Below are positions 436 to 10,907 of a stretch of DNA of 64,000 bases, piece after piece; the first letter of the stretch is position 1, and each line of letters starts with the position of its first letter. Source of the stretch: an uncultured Chloroflexia bacterium. GTDB lineage: Bacteria; Chloroflexota; Limnocylindria; Limnocylindrales; CSP1-4. A program made the position numbers and the translations under genes. The stretch is from positions 76,707 to 140,706 of the forward strand of contig OY969885.1 of assembly GCA_963704325.1 (NCBI GenBank), given 5' to 3'. The notes beneath the pieces were generated by a model. The model was not told the origin of the DNA and did not search any database. It was given only the letters and a program-made list of their open reading frames with translations.

Positions 436-3048
436 CTAGACCTCGGCCGGCTCCGCGTTCTCGGGTGACTTCGCCTGGTGGCGTTGCATGGCTGCCTTGC
501 GCGAGAGGTTGACCCTCCCCTGCCGGTCAACCTCGACCACGACGACCATGATCTCGTCGCCGACTGAGACCACGTCCTCCACGGTGGGCACGTGGTAGTC
601 GGCCAGCTCGCCGATGCGCACGAGACCTTCCTTGCCGGGCAGGATCTCGACGAACGCGCCGAAGGTCATGATCCGGGTCACCTTGCCCAGGTACAGACCG
701 CCGACCTCGACCTCACGAGTGATCCCTTCGATCATCGCGATGGCCGCACGCGACTTGTCGGCGTCGATCGCTGCGATCTCGACCGTGCCGTCGTCCTCGA
801 CGTTGATCTCTGTGCCGGTGTCCTCCTGGATCTTGCGGATCGTGGCGCCGCCCTTGCCGATGATGTCGCGGATCTTCTCCGGGTTGATCTTGATCGTGGT
901 GATGCGCGGCGCGAATGCCGACATCTCCTCACGGGCGCTGGGCAGAACCTCGGTCATCTTGTCCAGGATGAACAGCCGCGCGACGCGCGCCTTTTCCAGC
1001 CCGTCGCGAATGACCTGCTCGTTGATGCCCTCGACCTTGATGTCCATCTGGACGGCGGTGATGCCTTCGCTCGTGCCGGTCACCTTGAAGTCCATGTCAC
1101 CGAAGGAGTCTTCCTTGCCCAGGATGTCGGTCAGCACGGCGAACTTGCCGTCACTGCCTGACACGAGGCCCATTGCCGCGCCGGCAACCGGCGCCTTGAT
1201 CGGCACGCCGGCGTCCATCAGCGCGAGCGTCGAGCCGCACGTTGAGGCCATGGACGTCGAGCCGTTCGAGGTAACAGCCTCCGACACCAGCCGGATGACG
1301 TAAGGGAACTCCTCCGACGATGGCAGGACCGGCAGCAGCGCTCGCTCCGCGAGCGCGCCGTGGCCGATGTCGCGCCGCGAGGGCCCGCGCATCGGCTTGT
1401 TCTCACCCGTCGAGTACGGCGGGAAGTTGTAGTGATGGATGTATCGCTTGGACTCGTCGGGGCTGATCGTGTCGATGCGCTGGACGTCGGACGACGGTCC
1501 GAGTGTCGCGACAGTCAGCACCTGGGTCTGGCCGCGCGTGAACAGGGCGGAGCCGTGCGCGCGCGGCAGGAGGCCCGTCTCGACCGAGATCGGTCGGATG
1601 GTGTCGAGATCGCGGCCGTCCATGCGGATCCCCTCAGTGAGCACCAGCTCGCGCACGACCTTCTTCATCAGCAGGCCGGACAGGCCCTTCGAGAAGCGGG
1701 CCACCTTGCGCGCGGCGTCGATCTGCTTGGACGAATCGTCCGCGGAGGTGCCGTTGCGCAGCGAGCGGATCGCGTTGGCGACGGTCTCCTTGTACAGCTT
1801 GATTCGGTCGGGCAGGTCGCTGCCCAGGCGGATGAGCAATTGCGCGGTTGCCTCGGCGTCCGGCAGTGCGCGGTGGTTTGGCTCCACCTCGAGCGCGAAG
1901 AAGCGGGCCAGATCACCCAGTTTCAGGTCGCTGTCCGGGTGGGCCTCGCGCGCGATGACCAGCGTGTCCAGGTAGCGTCCCTGCTCGATCTTTTCGCCGG
2001 ACTCCAGCGCCGCCTCAATGAAGCCGATGTCGAAGCCCACGTTGTGGCCCACCAGCAGGGCGTCGCCTGCCCAGTCCATGAACGTCCGCGCGGCCTCCGC
2101 CGGAGTCGGCGCACCGGCCACGTCCTGGTCGGTGATGCCGTGCAGCTGGCGGCCGACGATCGGTCCGCCCGGATTGACCAGCGTTGACCAGCGATCCTCG
2201 ATCTGGCCGCGGACGACCTTCACGGCACCGATCTCGACCAGTGAACCCTGCTTGACGTCGCGGCTGGTTGTCTCGACGTCGAACACGACAAGCGGGCGAT
2301 CGCCCTTCATTGCATCGACGAGGTCGAGCACAGACTGGACGCTCGGCTCGATGTACGGCACGCGCTTGGCCTTGCCCACCTTCTCGCGCAGCTGCTCCTG
2401 CAGCTCGACGATCGGGACCAGGGAGCGGTGGCCGAACATGATCGCCTCGGCCATGACGGCCTCAGGCACGATCTTGGCGCCGGCCTCGACCATCATGATC
2501 GCGTCGCGCGTGCCGGAGACGACCAGGTCGATCTCCGAATCGGCCAGCTGGCTGTTGGTCGGGTTGAGCACGAGCTCACCGTTGATGCGGCCCACGCGGA
2601 CCGAAGCAACGGGGCCGGCGAACGGGATCTCGCTGATAGTCAGCGCGGCCGACGCGGCGATGGTGCCCAGGATGTCCGGATCGTTCTCCTGGTCGGTCGA
2701 CATGACCGTCAGCACGATCTGGACGTCGTCCTTGTAGCCCTCAGGGAAAAGCGGCCTGATCGGCCGGTCGGTCAGGCGTGCGGCCAGGATGGCTGCCTCT
2801 GACGGACGTGATTCGCGCTTGATGAAGCCGCCCGGGATCTTGCCCGCGGCATACATGCGCTCCTCGAACTCGATCGTCATCGGGAAGAAGTCGAGTCCCT
2901 GGCGCGGCTCGGACCGATTGGCCGTGCCGAGCAGCATTGTGTCGCCGTAGCGAATCGTGACGGATCCACCCGCGAGCAGGGCAAGCCTGCCCGTCTCGAT
3001 GGTGAGGGTGCGACCGGCGATCTCGGTCGTGAGCGTTGTGACTGGCAT
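436..3048 (-). CDS. pnp: Polyribonucleotide nucleotidyltransferase (PNPase) with an inserted DEDDh exonuclease domain
   Basis: 870-aa ORF with two RNase PH halves, a KH domain (IKINPEKIRDIIGKGGATIRKI) and an S1 domain (GKVTRIMTFGAFVEI). It sits immediately downstream of rpsO as in most bacteria. It is about 160 aa longer than typical PNPases because of the insert at aa ~252-410. Confidence 0.95.
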   Translation of the reverse strand: MPVTTLTTEIAGRTLTIETGRLALLAGGSVTIRYGDTMLLGTANRSEPRQGLDFFPMTIEFEERMYAAGKIPGGFIKRESRPSEAAILAARLTDRPIRPLFPEGYKDDVQIVLTVMSTDQENDPDILGTIAASAALTISEIPFAGPVASVRVGRINGELVLNPTNSQLADSEIDLVVSGTRDAIMMVEAGAKIVPEAVMAEAIMFGHRSLVPIVELQEQLREKVGKAKRVPYIEPSVQSVLDLVDAMKGDRPLVVFDVETTSRDVKQGSLVEIGAVKVVRGQIEDRWSTLVNPGGPIVGRQLHGITDQDVAGAPTPAEAARTFMDWAGDALLVGHNVGFDIGFIEAALESGEKIEQGRYLDTLVIAREAHPDSDLKLGDLARFFALEVEPNHRALPDAEATAQLLIRLGSDLPDRIKLYKETVANAIRSLRNGTSADDSSKQIDAARKVARFSKGLSGLLMKKVVRELVLTEGIRMDGRDLDTIRPISVETGLLPRAHGSALFTRGQTQVLTVATLGPSSDVQRIDTISPDESKRYIHHYNFPPYSTGENKPMRGPSRRDIGHGALAERALLPVLPSSEEFPYVIRLVSEAVTSNGSTSMASTCGSTLALMDAGVPIKAPVAGAAMGLVSGSDGKFAVLTDILGKEDSFGDMDFKVTGTSEGITAVQMDIKVEGINEQVIRDGLEKARVARLFILDKMTEVLPSAREEMSAFAPRITTIKINPEKIRDIIGKGGATIRKIQEDTGTEINVEDDGTVEIAAIDADKSRAAIAMIEGITREVEVGGLYLGKVTRIMTFGAFVEILPGKEGLVRIGELADYHVPTVEDVVSVGDEIMVVVVEVDRQGRVNLSRKAAMQRHQAKSPENAEPAEV
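1819..2295 (-). other. DnaQ/RNase T-like DEDDh 3'-5' exonuclease domain embedded in PNPase
   Basis: Exo I is VVFDVETTS, Exo II is LLVGHNVGFDIGF, and Exo III is NHRALPDAEATAQLL (H-x4-D). It is in frame with no stops, and PNPase helical-domain sequence flanks it on both sides. Confidence 0.8.
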
Positions 3049-3435: not shown

Positions 3436-4839
3436 ATGACGTCCACGGACGAGTCGGCCGCGTCTCGACGCGCGCTCACGACGTGGCCGCTCACGGGAAG
3501 CGCAGAGTTCGATCGGCTACCGGCGACATGGCGTGCGCGCACGGCGCAGGTGCTCGCAGCCGATTTCCAGCGTCACGTCTGCCAGGCCTGGTTCCCGCGC
3601 ACCGTGGACAGCGCCGCCGGTGGCTTCCTGTGCGATTTCGACCGCCGTTGGCGGCCGATCGGACGACAGGACCGCACGTTGGAATTCCAGGCGCGACAGA
3701 CGCGCTCGGCGGCGCGCATAGGTCGTGCGTTCCCGAAGCAGGCGAGTTGGGTCGAGGTGTCGCAGCACGGCTTCCGCTACCTGATGGAGGTCATGCACGA
3801 TCACGTGGAAGGCGGCTGGTACAACGCCGTCAATCGCGCTGGCGACCCGCTCATCGGCGGCTCGAAGCATGCCCACGGCACGGCCTACCTGATCGGCGGC
3901 CTCGCCTCCCTGCACCGGCTGACTGGTGACCCTGATGTGCTCGAGGCGGCAGTCGAGGCGTTCGAATGGCTGGAAGACACTCTGCACGACCCCGTCCAGG
4001 GCGGATACTTCGGGTGGGCGACCAGGGAAGGCAGGCCAATTCGATCCGTAGAGGACCTGCCCCCCGAAATCGCCGACATGCGCGTAGACCCGCTTGGTCA
4101 TGGCATCGGCTTCAAGGACGCGAACGTCCACTCGGACCTCCTCGACGCCTTCACTCAGCTCTACGCTGCCTGGCCCAACGAGCGCCTGAGATCGCGGATG
4201 GCCGAGGTCTTCGAGCTGGTCACGCGGCGCTTCGTCACTGCCGCCGGTTCCATGCACTACCTGGCTTATTCGGACTTCACGCCTGCGCCCACGCTCGAGC
4301 GATACGGCGACCCGAGTCAGACGGCGCCACGCCTGATCGTCGCCGGAGCGATGCTCGGCGCAGGCTCCGATGACATCCTGAGCCTCGTGCGCAGGATGTC
4401 GGACCACGTCGCCGAAGTTGCGTGGGACAGTGAGCGGGGAGGCTTTCGCGACGCCGGCCCCAGCGCCGCGCCCTTCCACCTCGCGGGACACTCGATGAGC
4501 CTGCCCACCAGGTCCTGGTGGGTGCAGACGGAGGCCATGAGGACGACCCTCCTCGTCGCGGCCATCTCCGACGACCCGGAGCCATACCTGCGCCGCTTCG
4601 ACGCCGCTCTGGAGTTCACGCGACGCGAGCTGTTGGACCACCGCCACGCTGGCTGGTACGCGGCCGCACTCTCCGATCAACCGCGCTGGCCGCCGCGTCC
4701 GCACCGTTCTCGCCGGCACAAGGGCAACATCTGGAAGGACGCGTCACACGAGACGGATTTCTACCTCGCTGCGCTGCGCATCCTGGGTGGAGTGGAGGCG
4801 GACGCAGCCCTGCCAGGCTCGCCAGATGCGGCGCATTAG
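3436..4839 (+). CDS. N-acylglucosamine 2-epimerase (AGE) superfamily protein (alpha/alpha six-hairpin)
   Basis: The ORF track starts at 3196 inside rpsO. The first plausible start is ATG 3436 (MTSTDES...). Motifs such as GGWYNAVNRAGDPL..SKHAHGTAYLIGGLASL and VQGGYFGWATREG resemble AGE/cellobiose-epimerase-type proteins. Confidence 0.7.
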   Translation: MTSTDESAASRRALTTWPLTGSAEFDRLPATWRARTAQVLAADFQRHVCQAWFPRTVDSAAGGFLCDFDRRWRPIGRQDRTLEFQARQTRSAARIGRAFPKQASWVEVSQHGFRYLMEVMHDHVEGGWYNAVNRAGDPLIGGSKHAHGTAYLIGGLASLHRLTGDPDVLEAAVEAFEWLEDTLHDPVQGGYFGWATREGRPIRSVEDLPPEIADMRVDPLGHGIGFKDANVHSDLLDAFTQLYAAWPNERLRSRMAEVFELVTRRFVTAAGSMHYLAYSDFTPAPTLERYGDPSQTAPRLIVAGAMLGAGSDDILSLVRRMSDHVAEVAWDSERGGFRDAGPSAAPFHLAGHSMSLPTRSWWVQTEAMRTTLLVAAISDDPEPYLRRFDAALEFTRRELLDHRHAGWYAAALSDQPRWPPRPHRSRRHKGNIWKDASHETDFYLAALRILGGVEADAALPGSPDAAH

Positions 4840-5354
4840 CCGACCCGGTCATTACGGGTCTGGTTCCAATGGATCGGCATGAGCCGATCGTGATCGTCAA
4901 CTCCCGGTGGCCCCTCCAGCACATCGCGGTCGAGCGTTACCCAGGCATGGCCGCGCAATGCGCCTCCGGGGCGGTCGAACCATTCCGCGCCGATGCGAAG
5001 CTGCATGTCATGTGCGCCGGCATCCAGAAATCGATACATCGACAGGGCGCGCACGTAGCAGGTGTCGCGGCCGCGCAAGCCCGGAAGGCGCAGCCACGGT
5101 TGCCGAAGCCGCGCAATTCGCTGCGCGCCGGCGCGCGAGTCAATGGCGCTGGGCCGGGCCGCACTTCTCAGGCCGCCGAGGAAATCCGTCAGGTGCGTCC
5201 GCTCGACGTTGCCCGACAGGCGGATCACAAACCAGCCGATGCGCAGCGACCAGTAGACGTCAGCCGGCGAGCGATAGGCGTGCGCCAAGCGCAGCGCGGC
5301 GCCCCACGGAGTCCACCACGGCGCAAGTCGGTGGAAGGAGCGGGCCACGATCAC
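4836..5354 (-). CDS. Lasso-peptide B2-like transglutaminase-fold cysteine protease (McjB C-terminal-like)
   Basis: 172 aa. The Cys motif RDTCYVRALSMYRFL and the His motif LRGHAWVTLD have the spacing typical of PF13471-type B2 proteins. The GTG start at 5354 overlaps the upstream GT2 stop as GTGA. Confidence 0.75.
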   Translation of the reverse strand: MIVARSFHRLAPWWTPWGAALRLAHAYRSPADVYWSLRIGWFVIRLSGNVERTHLTDFLGGLRSAARPSAIDSRAGAQRIARLRQPWLRLPGLRGRDTCYVRALSMYRFLDAGAHDMQLRIGAEWFDRPGGALRGHAWVTLDRDVLEGPPGVDDHDRLMPIHWNQTRNDRVG

Positions 5355-7222
5355 CGTGCGCTGGGTAGCTGAGCGTCCGCTGCCCGCCAGCGTTCAATCT
5401 CGCTCGGGCTCCAGAACGTTCGCGCGAAGCCCAGCCGTTGCGCCACGCGCTTGACGAACGTGCCGCGTCGCACGAGGCCCTCGTCGCCCATGGGCCGGAG
5501 CAGGGCCCCGAGTCCCACCGGGCCAAGTGCAAGCCAGTTGCGCAGCTCGTCGAGTGGGCCCCACTCGAGTTCGTCCTCGTAGCGGCGGAAGAACTGCGCG
5601 TAGCCCTTCCCGTAGCTGACCTGCTGCGCCCAGTACGCTCGCCAGCTCTGTCGGTGGCGGTGGTGGACGACAGCCCGCGGTGCGAAGGGAAAAGCGCCGC
5701 CAACGGCGCGCAGCAGGCGGGTGTGGAGATCGGCTCCCTCGTACGAGTCGAAGCGCGCATCAAATCCGCCCACCTCCAGCAGGGCCTGGCGGCGGTACAT
5801 GGCGTTTGAGGTGGGTGCCCATGGGTATCGCTTGTGAGCAAGGTGGCGATCGGCACGCAGCCCGCCGCTCGCGTCGACGAAGCGCGCCGCCGCCGTGGTC
5901 GAGCGATAGCCGATCGTCATACCCGCCGCGCCCAGCGCCGGATGAGCCGCCGTGGTCGTTTCTGCAACGGCTCCGAGCAGTGCCCGCAGCCAACCCCTGC
6001 TGGGGACGCAGTCCGCGTCCGTGAAGGCAATCCAGGTGCCCTGCGCGGACCGGATGCCGGCATTGCGCGAACTGCCTGCCGCGCGTCCCGAGCCCCGACT
6101 TGAGCTGCGCAGCACGGTTGCCCCGGAGCTCGCCGCTATCTCTGCGGAAGCATCGCGATTGCGCTCGTCAACAACCACGAGCACCTCGTAATCCGATCGC
6201 GCCAGGCTCTGTGCAAACAGGGCCGACAGGCAGTCACCCAGCGTGCCGGCGGCGTCGCGGACGGGAATCACGACCGACACGCTCGGCGGCCCGGAAGAAC
6301 GCGGCGCGCTCACGCGCTCGCGTCCCGCCGTGCCTCGTCGAACCCGTGCCAGAAGCTGCGGTCCCACATGGCCAGGTAGGCATCGAACTCGGCTGTGTCG
6401 GAGTCGATCTGCCCCAGCCGCAGCCGAGTCGAAGCTGCCATCGCATTCAATCGCCGCTGGGCGCTGCGATAGCCGCGCTGGACGCGATAGCGCAGGCTCC
6501 AGGTCCAGGAAGTCAGCATGGCGAGCGTAGAGGTGAGCCATTGCCGAGCCGTACTGGCGCGCCTGTGCCCAGAGCTCCGCGTCCGATTCGCGATCCTGGT
6601 GGAAGGCCAGCGCAGCTTCGATCAGCTCGATCCGCGGCCCGAACATGTCACGCACACGGAACGAGAACTCCACGTCTTCGCCTGCCTTGAGCTCCTGTGG
6701 CCACCCACCAACGGCAAGCGCCACGCTACGCCGGACGGCCATGTTGCGCGTGTTCGCGAAGGGCAGCTCGCGAGTTTCCAGCGGGCGCCGGGCGACGTTG
6801 AGCCCGTAGCGAGCCGCGAAACGCTGCGCGGCAGTGCGCGGCGGAAAGCTCGCCAATCCCCCGGCAACGATGTTGATTTCAGGGTCGGCGAAGGGTGCGG
6901 CTATCTCGCGCAGCCAGTTGCGGGCCGGAACGCAGTCGGCATCGAGCAGTGCCAGCACTTCGCCGCGCGCCTCATGCATGCCTAAATTCCTGGCCGCGGA
7001 GGGACCGCGCTCGTTCTCCTGCAGCACGCGCAGCCCCGGTATGGCGGCGCCCTGGGCAAGCTCGCGGCTGCCGTCTGTCGAGCCGTTGTCCACGATCAGG
7101 TATTCGGCCGCGGCGCCGCTCAACGGTCGCTGGGCGGCGAGCGCGGCGAGCAGGGCGGGCAGAGTACGCATCGCGTTGAGCATCGGCACGATGACAGAGA
7201 CGGCCGGCTGCGGGCCGATCAC
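5351..7222 (-). CDS. Glycosyltransferase family 2, two GT-A modules in one uninterrupted ORF (probably two genes, see findings)
   Basis: Module 1 has VSVIVPMLNA...YLIVDNGSTDGS...LDADC. Module 2 has VSVVIPVRDA...TDADC. The start was moved from 7315 to GTG 7222, which overlaps the kinase stop as GTGA. Third-position GC indicates a frame switch near 6495-6520 and an internal GTGA junction at 6310-6313. Confidence 0.7.
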   Translation of the reverse strand: MIGPQPAVSVIVPMLNAMRTLPALLAALAAQRPLSGAAAEYLIVDNGSTDGSRELAQGAAIPGLRVLQENERGPSAARNLGMHEARGEVLALLDADCVPARNWLREIAAPFADPEINIVAGGLASFPPRTAAQRFAARYGLNVARRPLETRELPFANTRNMAVRRSVALAVGGWPQELKAGEDVEFSFRVRDMFGPRIELIEAALAFHQDRESDAELWAQARQYGSAMAHLYARHADFLDLEPALSRPARLSQRPAAIECDGSFDSAAAGADRLRHSRVRCLPGHVGPQLLARVRRGTAGRERVSAPRSSGPPSVSVVIPVRDAAGTLGDCLSALFAQSLARSDYEVLVVVDERNRDASAEIAASSGATVLRSSSRGSGRAAGSSRNAGIRSAQGTWIAFTDADCVPSRGWLRALLGAVAETTTAAHPALGAAGMTIGYRSTTAAARFVDASGGLRADRHLAHKRYPWAPTSNAMYRRQALLEVGGFDARFDSYEGADLHTRLLRAVGGAFPFAPRAVVHHRHRQSWRAYWAQQVSYGKGYAQFFRRYEDELEWGPLDELRNWLALGPVGLGALLRPMGDEGLVRRGTFVKRVAQRLGFARTFWSPSEIERWRAADAQLPSAR

Positions 7223-8052
7223 GCGAGGAGCTCGTGCAGTGAGTCGAGGTAAGCGGGATTCGCGTATGCGTCGTTGTAGAGGGCGACTCGGTAGCCGGTC
7301 GCCTGCTCGGCACAACCCACGATGGCCTGGATGATCGATGTGGCCAGGCTTCGGTCGCTCGGAATGACCGTCTGGCGCATGAGCGCCGCGATGCGCTCCG
7401 GACGTTCCAGTGGGGTAACGGCGACCCCTCCGCGCCCACCGCGCCGCTCGAGCTCGAGCAGCACCACCGGTTCCATCGTGAGCGCGCTGCCGTGGGGCCA
7501 GAGCGTCCCGATCGGCATTCTCCGCTTGGGGGTCCAGGCGGAGTATTCCGGCAACGCGGCAACCGCTTGAAGCTCGGGAAACCAGGTAGCGGCTGCCGGG
7601 TCGATGTTCATGAACGAAGTCAGGCCGGATACGCGCCGCGGGCCGTTCATGGCCAGCAGCAGCTTGTCGTCGCCGAGCGAGCGCCAGCCGCGGCGCACCA
7701 GGGCGAGGGTGAACGTCGTCTTGCCGCCGCCGCTGGTGGCGCAGACGATTACGCCACGTGAGCCGTCCGTGAGCCCCGCCGCGTGCAGTGGGACCCAGCC
7801 GGAGCGCCGCCAGCCCGTGGTCAGCACCAGACTCAGCGTGTCCTCGATCTCAGGCCAGGCGCCGGCATCCACCAGGGACCCGGGCAAGCGCAGGGTCCAG
7901 CTCTCGCCATGCGCTCCGAAGCTGCCCGACAGCACTCCCCCGCTGCTGGTCGTGGCGCGCAGTCCGCCCGGCGCCGGATCGACCAGCATCTGCGCGCAGA
8001 CCAGGTAGCTTCCAACTGCCGGATCGCCGTCCGTGACGGACTCCACGTGCAC
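7219..8052 (-). CDS. HPr kinase-like (HprK-related) serine kinase; the N-terminus appears to lie in another frame upstream
   Basis: WVPLHAAGLTDGSRGVIVCATSGGGKTTFTLALVRRGWRSLGDDKLLL is a P-loop in the context seen in HprK-related and lasso-tailoring kinases. The GTG start at 8052 has no SD. Codons with coding-like composition continue upstream (8233 to ~8060) in the +1-related frame. Confidence 0.75.
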   Translation of the reverse strand: MHVESVTDGDPAVGSYLVCAQMLVDPAPGGLRATTSSGGVLSGSFGAHGESWTLRLPGSLVDAGAWPEIEDTLSLVLTTGWRRSGWVPLHAAGLTDGSRGVIVCATSGGGKTTFTLALVRRGWRSLGDDKLLLAMNGPRRVSGLTSFMNIDPAAATWFPELQAVAALPEYSAWTPKRRMPIGTLWPHGSALTMEPVVLLELERRGGRGGVAVTPLERPERIAALMRQTVIPSDRSLATSIIQAIVGCAEQATGYRVALYNDAYANPAYLDSLHELLA

Positions 8053-8204
8053 ATCTAACGAGACCTGCCACGGACGTCGTCTCCGGCCAGGGCATGTCGT
8101 ACAGCGCGAAGTTCGCGGCGATGAGGTCGGCGACTGGTCCCGCCGGGGCTGAAACTGCTATCTGCAGCGGCCCCGCCAGCGTGCCCCATTTGACGGGCGC
8201 GGCG

Positions 8205-8624
8205 CTACTCGGCGAGCGGGATGCTGGGGTCAAATGCGCTGACGATCACGCGTTGCAGTGGTTCGGCCTGTCGCTCTACCTGGACCGGCTGCCACTCGGG
8301 CGGAGCCTGGCCGTCTATGTTCGCCGGGTCGGCCATGGGCTCCAGGAGACGCTCGTCGAGCATCAACTGCAGTGCTGAGCGCAAGCCGGCCATATCCTCG
8401 TCCGGCGCGCCCCACGAGCGTGCCCGCGATTCCGCATGGTCGTAGGTGCAGCCGTCCTCGAACAGCTGGACCACGGACCAGCCCGATGGATTGAGCAGGT
8501 AGAAGTACTTGCTCTCCAGGTCGAGCAGAAGGGCGCCGTGATCGAGGACAGTCGCGACAACATCGGGCCGCAGCGCGAGACCGACCGATGGTGCGTTTCC
8601 CGGATCCTCTGCCAACCTGTCCAA
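8205..8624 (-). CDS. PqqD-family protein (RiPP recognition element / lasso B1-like) with a C-terminal extension
   Basis: LRPDVVATVLDHGALLLDLESKYFYLLNPSGWSVVQLF matches the PqqD/RRE pattern. TTG starts occur at 8624 or 8615, preceded by GGGAGGG. About 50 extra C-terminal residues are present. Confidence 0.75.
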   Translation of the reverse strand: MDRLAEDPGNAPSVGLALRPDVVATVLDHGALLLDLESKYFYLLNPSGWSVVQLFEDGCTYDHAESRARSWGAPDEDMAGLRSALQLMLDERLLEPMADPANIDGQAPPEWQPVQVERQAEPLQRVIVSAFDPSIPLAE

Positions 8625-8715
8625 GCCCTCCCACTAAGCGGCCGTAGTCTAACCGCGTGGGCTCTCACCCAGTCCGCAGCGGCGGGCCTGCGCGACGCCG
8701 AAACGCGACCGGTGG

Positions 8716-9915
8716 TCAGCGTGGCTTGGACAGCAGCCGGTTGCCATACTTTCGTGCCAGGCGGATGGGTCGGGTCAGCGCGTAAAGCGGAAACAGCAGG
8801 CGGGGCAGGCGCAGCGCTTCCCAATCGGCGCCGCTCGGCCGGAAGGCGACGTTGAGCAGATAGCGGATCTGATCCGAGGAGCGTTCACGCATACGTGCGT
8901 GAAAGACGAGGGAGTCGAAGCGCCGCGGCTGCGGATTGAAGAGATCCCTTTTGACGCTTTCCGTCAGGCGCCGCGCGGTACCGTCCTGGCCCGCACTTCG
9001 GGCGACTGCGCCGGGCAGGTCCGCGGCGCACAGTTCCGCAGCGAGCAGCAAACCCAGGTGAACCATGCGCAGGGAGCCGCGCGCTCGCGACCCTTCGATG
9101 AGGCGCGCCCAGCCGCCGACGTCAACCAGCCTGACCATAAGCGCGATGTCCAGGATCCACGCCACGCGCTCCCAGCGGTGCTTGGAGCCGTGAATGCACA
9201 GCGCTTCCAGCTCGTCCACTGGATCGAGCGCCCAGATCTTCGTTCTCATCAGCTCGACCTGCGTCAATCGCTGCCACAGGTGCTCGGCCGCCCGGCGCTC
9301 CGAGTAGTAGGTCGGCACTACGGCGCTGTGCAGCTCGAGCCACAGCCCGTCACTGTCGCGCACCATCTCCAGCTCACCCTGATGGTCGACGTAGACCTCC
9401 TGCTCGCTTTCGCTCATCCGCTTCTCTGTTCGAAAGCCCATGTCGCTCATCACGTCGCGCGCCGCCAGAAGCTCGTGGCGGCGAACCAGGATGTCAAGGT
9501 CGTAGAACTGGCGCAGGGACACGTCGCCGTAGGCGCGGTGGGCGAGCACCGGACCCTTCCAGGGGGCAGCCGTGATGCCGGTCGCCGCAAGCTTGCGCAG
9601 AGTCGCCGTCAGCTCGCCGGCAAGCCACAGGTTGCGCCGCGTATTGGCCGTGTACGCAGTCTGGAGATCTGTGGCAACCAGCTCGGGTAGCAGCGCTTTG
9701 TGCGCCTCGAGCGACCGCCAGGCGACTGGTGCCAGCGCGTGCTGCATGATCAGGCGAAGGAACTCGGCCCAATCTGCGCGCGACATGTCCAGCGGAGGTC
9801 GCATCGCCGCGTCTTCGCCGGCTGCGAATGACCGCGCGCACCAAAGCAGAAGATCCGGCGCAGGGCGTGGCGCCTTCGCCGATTGGGTAGCATCCCCGTG
9901 TGGCCCGATCAACAC
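8716..9915 (-). CDS. Uncharacterised nucleotidyltransferase family protein (PF14907 / NTP_transf_5-like)
   Basis: LLLWCARS...WKGPVLAHRAYGDVSLRQFYDLDILVRRHELLAARDVMSDMGF is typical of this family. The longest ORF starts at ATG 9978 but would overlap the divergent sulfotransferase. GTG 9915 is proposed instead; the start is uncertain. Confidence 0.7.
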   Translation of the reverse strand: MLIGPHGDATQSAKAPRPAPDLLLWCARSFAAGEDAAMRPPLDMSRADWAEFLRLIMQHALAPVAWRSLEAHKALLPELVATDLQTAYTANTRRNLWLAGELTATLRKLAATGITAAPWKGPVLAHRAYGDVSLRQFYDLDILVRRHELLAARDVMSDMGFRTEKRMSESEQEVYVDHQGELEMVRDSDGLWLELHSAVVPTYYSERRAAEHLWQRLTQVELMRTKIWALDPVDELEALCIHGSKHRWERVAWILDIALMVRLVDVGGWARLIEGSRARGSLRMVHLGLLLAAELCAADLPGAVARSAGQDGTARRLTESVKRDLFNPQPRRFDSLVFHARMRERSSDQIRYLLNVAFRPSGADWEALRLPRLLFPLYALTRPIRLARKYGNRLLSKPR

Positions 9916-9965
9916 GGTCGCAGCGTAGCGGGGGCGCGGCTCAGGAACGTGGTGCGCGGCGTCGG

Positions 9966-10907
9966 GTGCCCGACGCATTCCTCATCGGCACGCCGCGTGC
10001 CGCGACGACCTCGTTTTACCGCGCACTGGGCGATCATCCCTCCATCTACGCCCCCGCGTTGAAGGAAGCCTGCTTCACCTGCCCTGACATCGACCCCGGC
10101 CAGACCCAGAGTCAGACCAGGTACTTCTCTGACGAAGCCGAGTACCTGCAACTCTTCGCGGCGTCAGGGCCGGAGCAGCTCGTTCTGGAGGGCTGCATGT
10201 ACAACATCTATTCGCCTCGCGCCCCCGGACTCATCCGCGCACTCAACGGTGCCGCCCGTCTACTGGTCCAGCTCCGCGATCCCATTGAGCAGATGTATTC
10301 GAACCACGCGCTCAAGCTGATCATGGTCGATTCGACGCGCACCTTCGAGAATGAGCTTGAGGTTCAGGCTGACGTCCGAGGCGACCGCGCGGGGCAGCCG
10401 TTGAACATGAGGGACTACGACCTGCGCGACAAGGCGATTGCCGCGCCCGGTCTGCGCCGCTTCATCGACGAGTTTGGGCGCGATCGCATACACGTCAGCC
10501 TGTACGAGGATTTCGCTACGGATGCCCACTCGGTGCTGCGATCTGCGTTCCGCTTCCTGGGCGTGGATGAGGGCCATGTCGCGACGGTAGGCGTCCACGT
10601 ACCCAATCGCGTCGCACGGAGTGACACGGTCAATCGGACGATGGCATCGCAGCGTGTGATCGCCGGCGCCAAGAGCGTCGTGCCGGATCGACTCCACCCG
10701 GTGGCCCGCCGCCTGGTCGCGGCTGCCTTTCGGCTCAACCGACGGCGCGTTCAACGCGCGCCATTGGATCCCGCTCTGCGCGACCGCCTGCGGGCCGAGT
10801 TTCGCGCAGAGGTTGCAGAGCTCAGCGACCTCACCGGGATCGACCTCCATGCGCGCTGGTGGAGTGCGCCGCCCAAGCCGCTTGAGCCGTCCGCAGGTGC
10901 GCGCTAG
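9966..10907 (+). CDS. Sulfotransferase family protein
   Basis: The 5'-PSB-like loop is PDAFLIGTPRAATTSFYRAL and the 3'-PB-like motif is LVQLRDPIEQMYSNHA. The ORF track start is GTG 9900. GTG 9966, directly before the PSB loop, avoids a divergent overlap. Confidence 0.7.
   Translation: MPDAFLIGTPRAATTSFYRALGDHPSIYAPALKEACFTCPDIDPGQTQSQTRYFSDEAEYLQLFAASGPEQLVLEGCMYNIYSPRAPGLIRALNGAARLLVQLRDPIEQMYSNHALKLIMVDSTRTFENELEVQADVRGDRAGQPLNMRDYDLRDKAIAAPGLRRFIDEFGRDRIHVSLYEDFATDAHSVLRSAFRFLGVDEGHVATVGVHVPNRVARSDTVNRTMASQRVIAGAKSVVPDRLHPVARRLVAAAFRLNRRRVQRAPLDPALRDRLRAEFRAEVAELSDLTGIDLHARWWSAPPKPLEPSAGAR

Follow-up and report, generated by a model that had tools for sequence, protein, structure and literature searches.

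The HprK-like kinase gene analyzed here, which lies in the genome of an uncultured Chloroflexia bacterium and is annotated as an open reading frame (ORF) of 277 aa, is supported by sequence comparison as one longer gene of 337 codons that runs from TTG 8233 to the stop at 7219 and is interrupted by a single extra base at 8076. The surplus base quite probably reflects an erroneous insertion in the sequencing or assembly consensus, and not a property of the organism's DNA, and the annotated 277-aa kinase is a truncated call. All positions, unless stated otherwise, refer to the window, that is, the whole stretch of 64,000 nt that was analyzed (GenBank assembly GCA_963704325.1, contig OY969885.1, positions 76,707 to 140,706), which is situated within a single contig of 2,433,234 bp with 68.4% GC and an estimated completeness of 90%. 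The original prediction, made from the letters alone, had suggested that the N-terminal ~55 codons of one longer kinase are encoded in another frame and that a +1 shift is needed, and the lengths of the orthologues, their collinear N-termini, an intact relative and a soil-metagenome contig all support it. The features are listed in Table 1.

The PqqD-like ORF (8624..8205) and the kinase-like ORF, from GTG 8052 to the stop 7219, are both on the minus strand. A third minus-strand frame is open from 8233 to 7850, as had been stated, and reads ...VKWGTLAGPLQIAVSAPAGPVADLIAANFALYDMPW...; the peptide of this upstream frame from 8203 to 8054 contains GPLQIAV...LIAANFALYDMPW. Its coding-like composition was confirmed, since the G+C content at third codon positions (GC3) is 0.78 in this interval, close to the 79% given originally, and the codon log-odds are positive, in contrast to the strongly negative values of the other two frames (-41 and -15). 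The N-terminal part of the kinase starts at TTG 8233, within the end of the PqqD gene, and not past the PqqD stop (8205-8207). As assembled, the kinase is not one uninterrupted ORF of ~320-340 codons, and a +1 shift at 8076 is needed to join its parts; the window without base 8076 gives one ORF from TTG 8233 to 7219 with 337 codons, which is the length of the orthologues. The annotated start, GTG 8052, is an internal Val codon of this longer gene.

For the 277-aa ORF, 202 homologues were found at E <= 0.001, with a top identity of 56%, and most of them are 300-345 aa long, i.e., they have ~50-60 residues more at the N-terminus. The kinase residues from 8052 onward match the orthologues with E values from 1e-90 to 1e-58. 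In BLASTP comparisons, the 52 residues encoded by 8233..8078 match residues 1-50 of the orthologue P0025 (52% identity, E 2e-12) and residues 1-52 of the orthologue P0087 (E 3e-12), so the likeness to N-termini of HprK-related kinases, which had been suggested originally, corresponds to true homology. In alignment A1, the upstream-frame peptide sits on the N-terminal block of the homologues, whose consensus is GPLxI...L...A..LxLYDxxW. In an alignment of 68 sequences, W49 is invariant and G21, P22, L23, L44, and D46 are at least 90% conserved, and the equivalents of these six residues in the window are all encoded upstream of the break, in the upstream frame. Since this frame is collinear with the homologue N-termini and holds the family-invariant residues, it is taken as the N-terminus of the kinase. 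That is, the orthologues do not begin at the equivalent of GTG 8052 with nothing similar before it, which was the finding named beforehand as fatal to a longer gene. The similarity to the homologues tagged PF27840 in the protein collection is likewise collinear over the full length and takes in the N-terminal GPL...LYDxxW block. For P0087, an intact orthologue of the same genus, the AlphaFold model (mean predicted local distance difference test, pLDDT, 94.6) shows residues 14-64 of the N-domain in the order strand, strand, helix, strand, and translation from GTG 8052 would set in within the last of these strands.

Where, then, does the frame switch? Homology in the kinase frame reaches upstream of GTG 8052, because QVSLD (8067-8053) aligns with (K/R)(R/P)V(S/E)L of the orthologues in alignment A1, where QVSLDVHVES spans GTG 8052 from its upstream side. 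The Trp codon (8089-8087) is separated from the Val codon (8064-8062) by 22 nt, that is, 7 codons and 1 base, and most orthologues have 7 residues here. Contigs of public sequencing runs were aligned on window 6500-9500. Among them, a soil-metagenome contig of 231 nt (X4), which covers 7932-8163 with 12 substitutions (~95% identical), leaves out one base at 8076. Rebuilt from the listed differences, it reads in a single frame through the junction, ...LYDMPWRETSPWQVSLD..., and its 3 substitutions between 8099 and 8126 are all synonymous in the N-terminal frame. Because this contig reads through without 8076, and 22 nt stand where the orthologues have 7 codons, the break is placed at one extra base, 8076, and the site proposed originally is 10-20 nt too far downstream. 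The earlier location of the switch, near 8055-8065, was wrong, since homology in the kinase frame already covers 8067-8053. The proposed junction CUC GUU AGA U, with its hint of recoding at a rare codon, has to be abandoned as well, for the shift is at 8076, with neither a stop nor a rare codon there. The AGA in question (8056-8054; usage of AGA, 0.77 per 1000 codons) is ~20 nt downstream of the switch in the abandoned frame, and is unread in the functional frame. The extra C is flanked by A and G and duplicates no neighbor, and the insertion is unlike those caused by replication slippage. Note that exact patterns found neither junction allele in metagenome contigs (33 and 25 specified bases) or genome contigs (33), and that none of the public runs screened with sampled words of the sequence held more than 0.15 of the words. 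A further contig, X1, described below, does not reach 8076.

An orthologue of the kinase was found in 2 of the 60 related genomes searched, both of the same genus. One of them (G025) has an intact ORF of 338 aa, with a TTG start and a 29-nt overlap of the PqqD stop, as TTG 8233 overlaps 8205-8207 in the window, and its gene order is also that of the window: PF14907 nucleotidyltransferase, PqqD, kinase, GT2, GT2. The order PqqD, kinase, GT2, GT2 is found in the other (G020) as well. A further genome, G003, is flagged as unpublished, and none of the statements made here depends on it. The search for the same shift in related genomes, which had been recommended, was thus carried out, and the frame shift is not conserved, G025 being intact and the X4 strain reading in one frame. 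As a separate observation, the kinase N-terminus of G020 (L010:2300-2520; …AGPLDIDL…) comes after the PqqD stop TAA in the same frame, and the first ATG, GTG or TTG codon is a GTG located 28 codons further downstream. No TTG start remains (TTC for TTT), and the deposited protein P0050 (302 aa) begins at the late GTG. Either this gene starts at a non-canonical codon, or it contains its own indel, or its N-terminus is truncated.

The adjacent glycosyltransferase gene, GT2-a, contains a second extra base of the same +1 type. Residues 1-239 of GT2-a (7222..6506) match residues 26-259 of the G025 orthologue with E 2e-100, while the 64 aa that follow in the +1 frame (6504..6313) match residues 261-318 of the same protein with E 2e-10, and this frame terminates at TGA 6312-6310. 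The X1 contig (151 nt), which is at least 99% identical where aligned, matches 6506-6623. It has a loose end of 33 nt, of which the 30 letters shown are exactly those of window 6475-6504, so base 6505 is absent from the contig. The 654-aa 'double GT2' ORF (7315..5351) is therefore in reality two genes, read as one as a by-product of the frameshift at 6505; two separate GT2 genes are present in both G025 and G020. A distance of 1,571 nt separates the two extra bases, which are in neighboring genes and each of which is missing from an independent contig.

Frame switches were also sought along the whole genome with a codon log-odds model trained on 483 long ORFs. A switch was defined as a strongly coding segment that ends at least 15 codons before its stop, with another frame of the same strand coding within 36 nt, and a switch was called strong if both sides reached at least 30 units. 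In 2.43 Mb, the scan gave 121 strong switches, of which 107 need one base to be skipped and 14 are of the opposite type, in contrast to 6 switches (3:3; 2.4 candidates per 100 kb) in a control scan over 247 kb of a multi-contig assembly of the same genus (G009). The scan has false positives, such as the ordinary rimM/trmD-type boundaries at window ~33146 and ~33848, and ~100 should be regarded as an estimate, not a count. It also undercounts short pieces: the kinase locus itself was unflagged, as its 52-codon N-terminal segment has 6.8 log-odds units versus a threshold of 12. The switches occur in clusters; the interval at 2.3-2.4 Mb, for instance, contains 21 when the threshold is loosened to 20 units. 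For 73 precisely placed +1 junctions, no common motif was found after multiple testing and no enrichment of homopolymers, and the share of 6-bp palindromes is slightly up (0.53 vs. 0.39). Comparison with protein families confirmed the strongest candidates, and single-copy genes are among them: secA, nrdJ, sufS, and treS all have such a split (Table 1). Of these, secA is in two frames, and nrdJ is in no fewer than four pieces. In the 36 relatives compared, a secA split within one contig is confined to few-contig assemblies of lowered estimated completeness (G002, G010, and G018), and multi-contig relatives have the gene split only where its pieces fall on separate contigs. One strong candidate (L001; genome 1286522-1291529), whose upstream part has no family match, was not validated.

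Two further observations concern the distribution of such breaks. At G000:C1:166517-168135, a UvrD/PcrA-like helicase (TFNKRAA, TFHALG, LLVDEVQD), judged from motifs only, extends over three frames with two +1 switches, and is the nearest confirmed-looking break outside the operon. The assemblies of the same-genus genomes G002, G018, and G028 (1-10 contigs) have completeness estimates of only 51-65%, and secA is fragmented within a contig in G002 and G018 (the secA search did not include G028). These three assemblies probably carry even more indel errors than the source assembly. The source assembly resembles indel-rich long-read metagenome assemblies in that it is a single contig with 90% completeness and many single-base breaks in conserved single-copy genes, and has few-contig relatives with fragmented secA; it differs from them in that the breaks are mostly insertions (107:14) and are not tied to homopolymers.

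Because the organism cannot live with broken secA, nrdJ, and sufS, the extra-base class that breaks them is best explained as consensus insertion errors. The break at 8076 is of the same type as this genome-wide class, a same-type break next door is absent from a near-identical strain, and both the coding signal and the conserved residues are intact on the two sides of 8076. Of the three explanations offered originally, the sequencing or assembly indel is thus the best supported, a genuine inactivating frameshift comes behind it, and programmed +1 recoding is disfavored. Some points weigh against an error at 8076. The gene anatomy, the site, the intact relatives and the genome-wide breaks can be seen directly, whereas the error status of this very base is reached indirectly. 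The sole contig over 8076 is ~95% identical, which shows that an intact allele exists, and not that the source strain has it. The first ~160 kb of the genome, where the window is located, has almost no strong candidates, so that the local error rate may be under the genome average. Finally, breaks in two neighboring genes are likewise what would be expected if this accessory operon were decaying.

The last of these points leads to the alternative that survives best, namely genuine, strain-specific frameshifts: a 1-bp insertion at 8076 would have inactivated the kinase and a second one at 6505 GT2-a, in a decaying accessory operon. We consider this possible, at a clearly minor probability. The operon is indeed accessory, with orthologues of the kinase in so few of the relatives searched, its two breaks are in neighboring genes while the surrounding ~160 kb is otherwise clean in the scan, and intact alleles elsewhere would be expected after a recent mutation no less than with an error. 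However, both breaks belong to the extra-base type by which essential single-copy genes of this assembly are split, base 6505 is missing from a contig with at least 99% identity, the insertion at 8076 duplicates no neighboring base, and both halves of the gene retain coding-like codon usage with the conserved residues all intact. If base 8076 were real, it would mean merely one strain's loss of an accessory peptide-modification operon.

It is very improbable that the annotation is right, i.e., that the kinase starts at GTG 8052 with 277 aa and that the upstream frame is a separate small ORF or non-coding. In favor of this, the start codon GTG 8052 is canonical, gene callers give the 277-aa product, and some database homologues are listed at 257-285 aa. 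However, this start is refuted by the homology of the upstream frame to the orthologue N-termini, by the invariant residues in it and by the kinase-frame homology across GTG 8052, while the short entries in the database, most of them from short contigs, have their start within conserved blocks. We also give very little credence to the view that the roughly eightfold +1 excess, as seen in secA, nrdJ, sufS and the kinase, is real in the DNA and that the cell tolerates it or corrects it during expression, for instance through +1 frameshifting across the genome or through correction of transcripts, considering that the junctions share no motif, that near-identical strains lack both of the bases checked, and that secA is fragmented within contigs only in few-contig assemblies. 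Least likely of all, with hardly any probability left to it, is programmed +1 ribosomal frameshifting near ACG-ACG-U (8080-8074) as a regulatory device that would yield the full-length kinase: the open readings of the two frames overlap, the rare AGA noted originally is nearby, and GGAG shortly before the site, at 8085-8082, was the one feature in favor when the evidence was weighed, but the shift is absent in G025, in the X4 strain and in more than 100 database homologues, all in a single frame, and thus lacks the conservation in orthologues of the prfB or antizyme type, the zero frame has no stop until 7850 and neither an in-frame stop nor a hungry codon at the site, the AGA is ~20 nt downstream of the point where homology has already switched frame, and the 73 +1 junctions have neither a common motif nor homopolymer enrichment. 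Reports of a single-gene frameshift, a fusion or a missing start in this genome should be weighed against ~100 insertion-type consensus errors.

Table 1. Features of the kinase operon (window positions) and conserved genes split over two frames elsewhere in the contig (genome positions).
Feature	Position	Strand	Description
PF14907 nucleotidyltransferase gene	8716..9978	-	First operon gene; Pfam NTP_transf_5, E 1e-51
PqqD/RRE-like gene	8205..8624	-	C-terminal tail ending ...VIVSAFDPSIPLAE; NCBIfam lasso_PqqD_Strm 29.3 bits, E 7e-7, below cut-off
Kinase N-terminal 52 codons	8078..8233	-	Upstream frame from TTG 8233; 29-nt overlap with the end of the PqqD gene; BLASTP matches to orthologue N-termini
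Extra base	8076	-	C on minus strand, G on plus strand, GAGACGA[C]GTCC; frame moved +1; left out in X4 contig
Kinase remainder	7219..8075	-	Downstream frame; N-domain strands, Walker A SGGGKTT, C-terminal part; stop 7221-7219
GT2-a glycosyltransferase gene	6310..7222	-	GTG 7222 overlaps kinase stop (GTGA); true stop 6312-6310 in the +1 frame
Second extra base	6505	-	In GT2-a; plus strand CAGGT[C]CAGG; +1 type
GT2-b glycosyltransferase gene	5351..6313	-	GTG 6313 overlaps GT2-a stop (GTGA)
Lasso B2-like transglutaminase-fold gene	4836..5354	-	Last operon gene; Pfam Transglut_core3 36.4 bits; NCBIfam lasso_biosyn_B2 31.9 bits vs. cut-off 33
SufS	1389030-1390272		Upstream frame, profile positions 2-211; downstream frame, 212-402; break at ~1389693
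SecA	1260476-1263458		Upstream frame, profile positions 51-261; downstream frame, 263-813; break at ~1261456
NrdJ, B12-dependent ribonucleotide reductase	467026-470094		Upstream frame, profile positions 19-273; downstream frame, 275-602; breaks at ~467911 and beyond
TreS-maltokinase	1923577-1926493		Split over two frames, adjoining profile positions; break at ~1925194

The intact protein is a P-loop kinase of the HprK/PEPCK fold with the Walker A motif SGGGKTT. In Foldseek searches, the whole model superposes on ATP-dependent phosphoenolpyruvate (PEP) carboxykinases, and the C-domain matches the HprK/P catalytic domains 1kkl_A, 2qmh_B, and 3tqf_A with E values of 1e-6 to 3e-6 and template modeling (TM) scores of 0.55-0.59 on the target; that is, a catalytic C-domain with a P-loop, as in the HPr(Ser) kinase/phosphorylase fold, is present. 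Membership in the named HprK families was rejected, as the scores are far under the cut-offs and concern the P-loop region only. For HprK-related kinase A (TIGR04352), the window ORF scores 33.9 bits and intact orthologues 31.4 and 29.1, versus a cut-off of 200; for HprK-related kinase B (TIGR04355), the window ORF scores 33.4 bits and the orthologues 22.2-22.5, again versus 200. The matches to these two families (E 1.8e-8 and 2.6e-8, respectively) extend over only ~55-80 residues around the P-loop. The HPr(Ser) kinase/phosphorylase models are also far from being reached (PF07475, 17.9 bits vs. 33.3; TIGR00679, 15.1 vs. 240). The closest known relatives are the uncharacterized HprK/PEPCK-fold kinases with the PF27840 tag (P0004-P0122), from Chloroflexota/Limnocylindria, Candidatus Velthaea and Binatia bins, which are collinear with the window kinase at 42-56% identity and share with it the N-terminal GPL...LYDxxW, the Walker A GGGKT and the C-terminal QTVIP blocks. 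In two genomes of the same genus, these kinases have PqqD upstream and GT2 downstream, as in the window; the window gene differs in being in two frames from one extra base.

The kinase is the third gene of a translationally coupled operon, which consists of the PF14907 nucleotidyltransferase, PqqD/RRE-like, kinase, GT2-a, GT2-b, and lasso-B2-like genes. The last 9 codons and the stop of the PqqD gene overlap the kinase start. The PqqD-like protein has a C-terminal extension of ~50 aa (window 8205-8357), and the last ~25 residues of this tail, ERQAEPLQ(K/R)VIVSAFDPSIPLAE, are nearly identical in G020 and G025. The overlap with the kinase start accounts for constraint on just the last 9 codons, so that the kinase could use the tail for docking or even as its substrate. 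Together with a divergent sulfotransferase gene, the operon (window 4836-10907) is located between ribF and an epimerase-like gene that precedes pnp. Its B1, B2-like, kinase, nucleotidyltransferase, and two GT2 genes make up a lasso-like set for tailoring and leader processing. The polynucleotide phosphorylase (PNPase; window 436-3048, minus strand) has 870 aa, of which residues 254-405, located between its two RNase PH cores, form an RNase_T (DEDD exonuclease) domain. The annotated ORFs at ~3.2-11.9 kb are epimerase-like, B2-like, two GT2, kinase, PqqD, NTP_transf_5, sulfotransferase, and ribF. Among them, no Asn_synthase match, as expected of a lasso cyclase, and no exporter were found, so that a lasso cluster in the usual sense was not recognized; no precursor is visible either, although no systematic precursor search was made.

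HPr-kinase homologues are known to phosphorylate the C-terminal Ser of lasso-peptide precursors, for example PadeK in the case of paeninodin, and the kinase of pseudomycoidin, which has a nucleotidyltransferase partner (PMC8498205). Compared to these lasso-peptide kinase systems, the window has two GT2 genes instead, there is neither a cyclase nor an exporter among the above ORFs, and the likeness to PadeK is one of gene set. On the other hand, much of the tailoring set of phosphorylated and phosphoglycosylated lasso peptides has its counterpart in the window, namely the HprK-like kinase, the PqqD/B1-like and B2-like proteins, the PF14907 nucleotidyltransferase and the nearby sulfotransferase (PMC8498205). 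Because the operon context resembles that of the HPr-kinase homologues of phosphorylated lasso peptides, the kinase probably phosphorylates, by analogy with them, a peptide or protein substrate presented by its PqqD-like partner.

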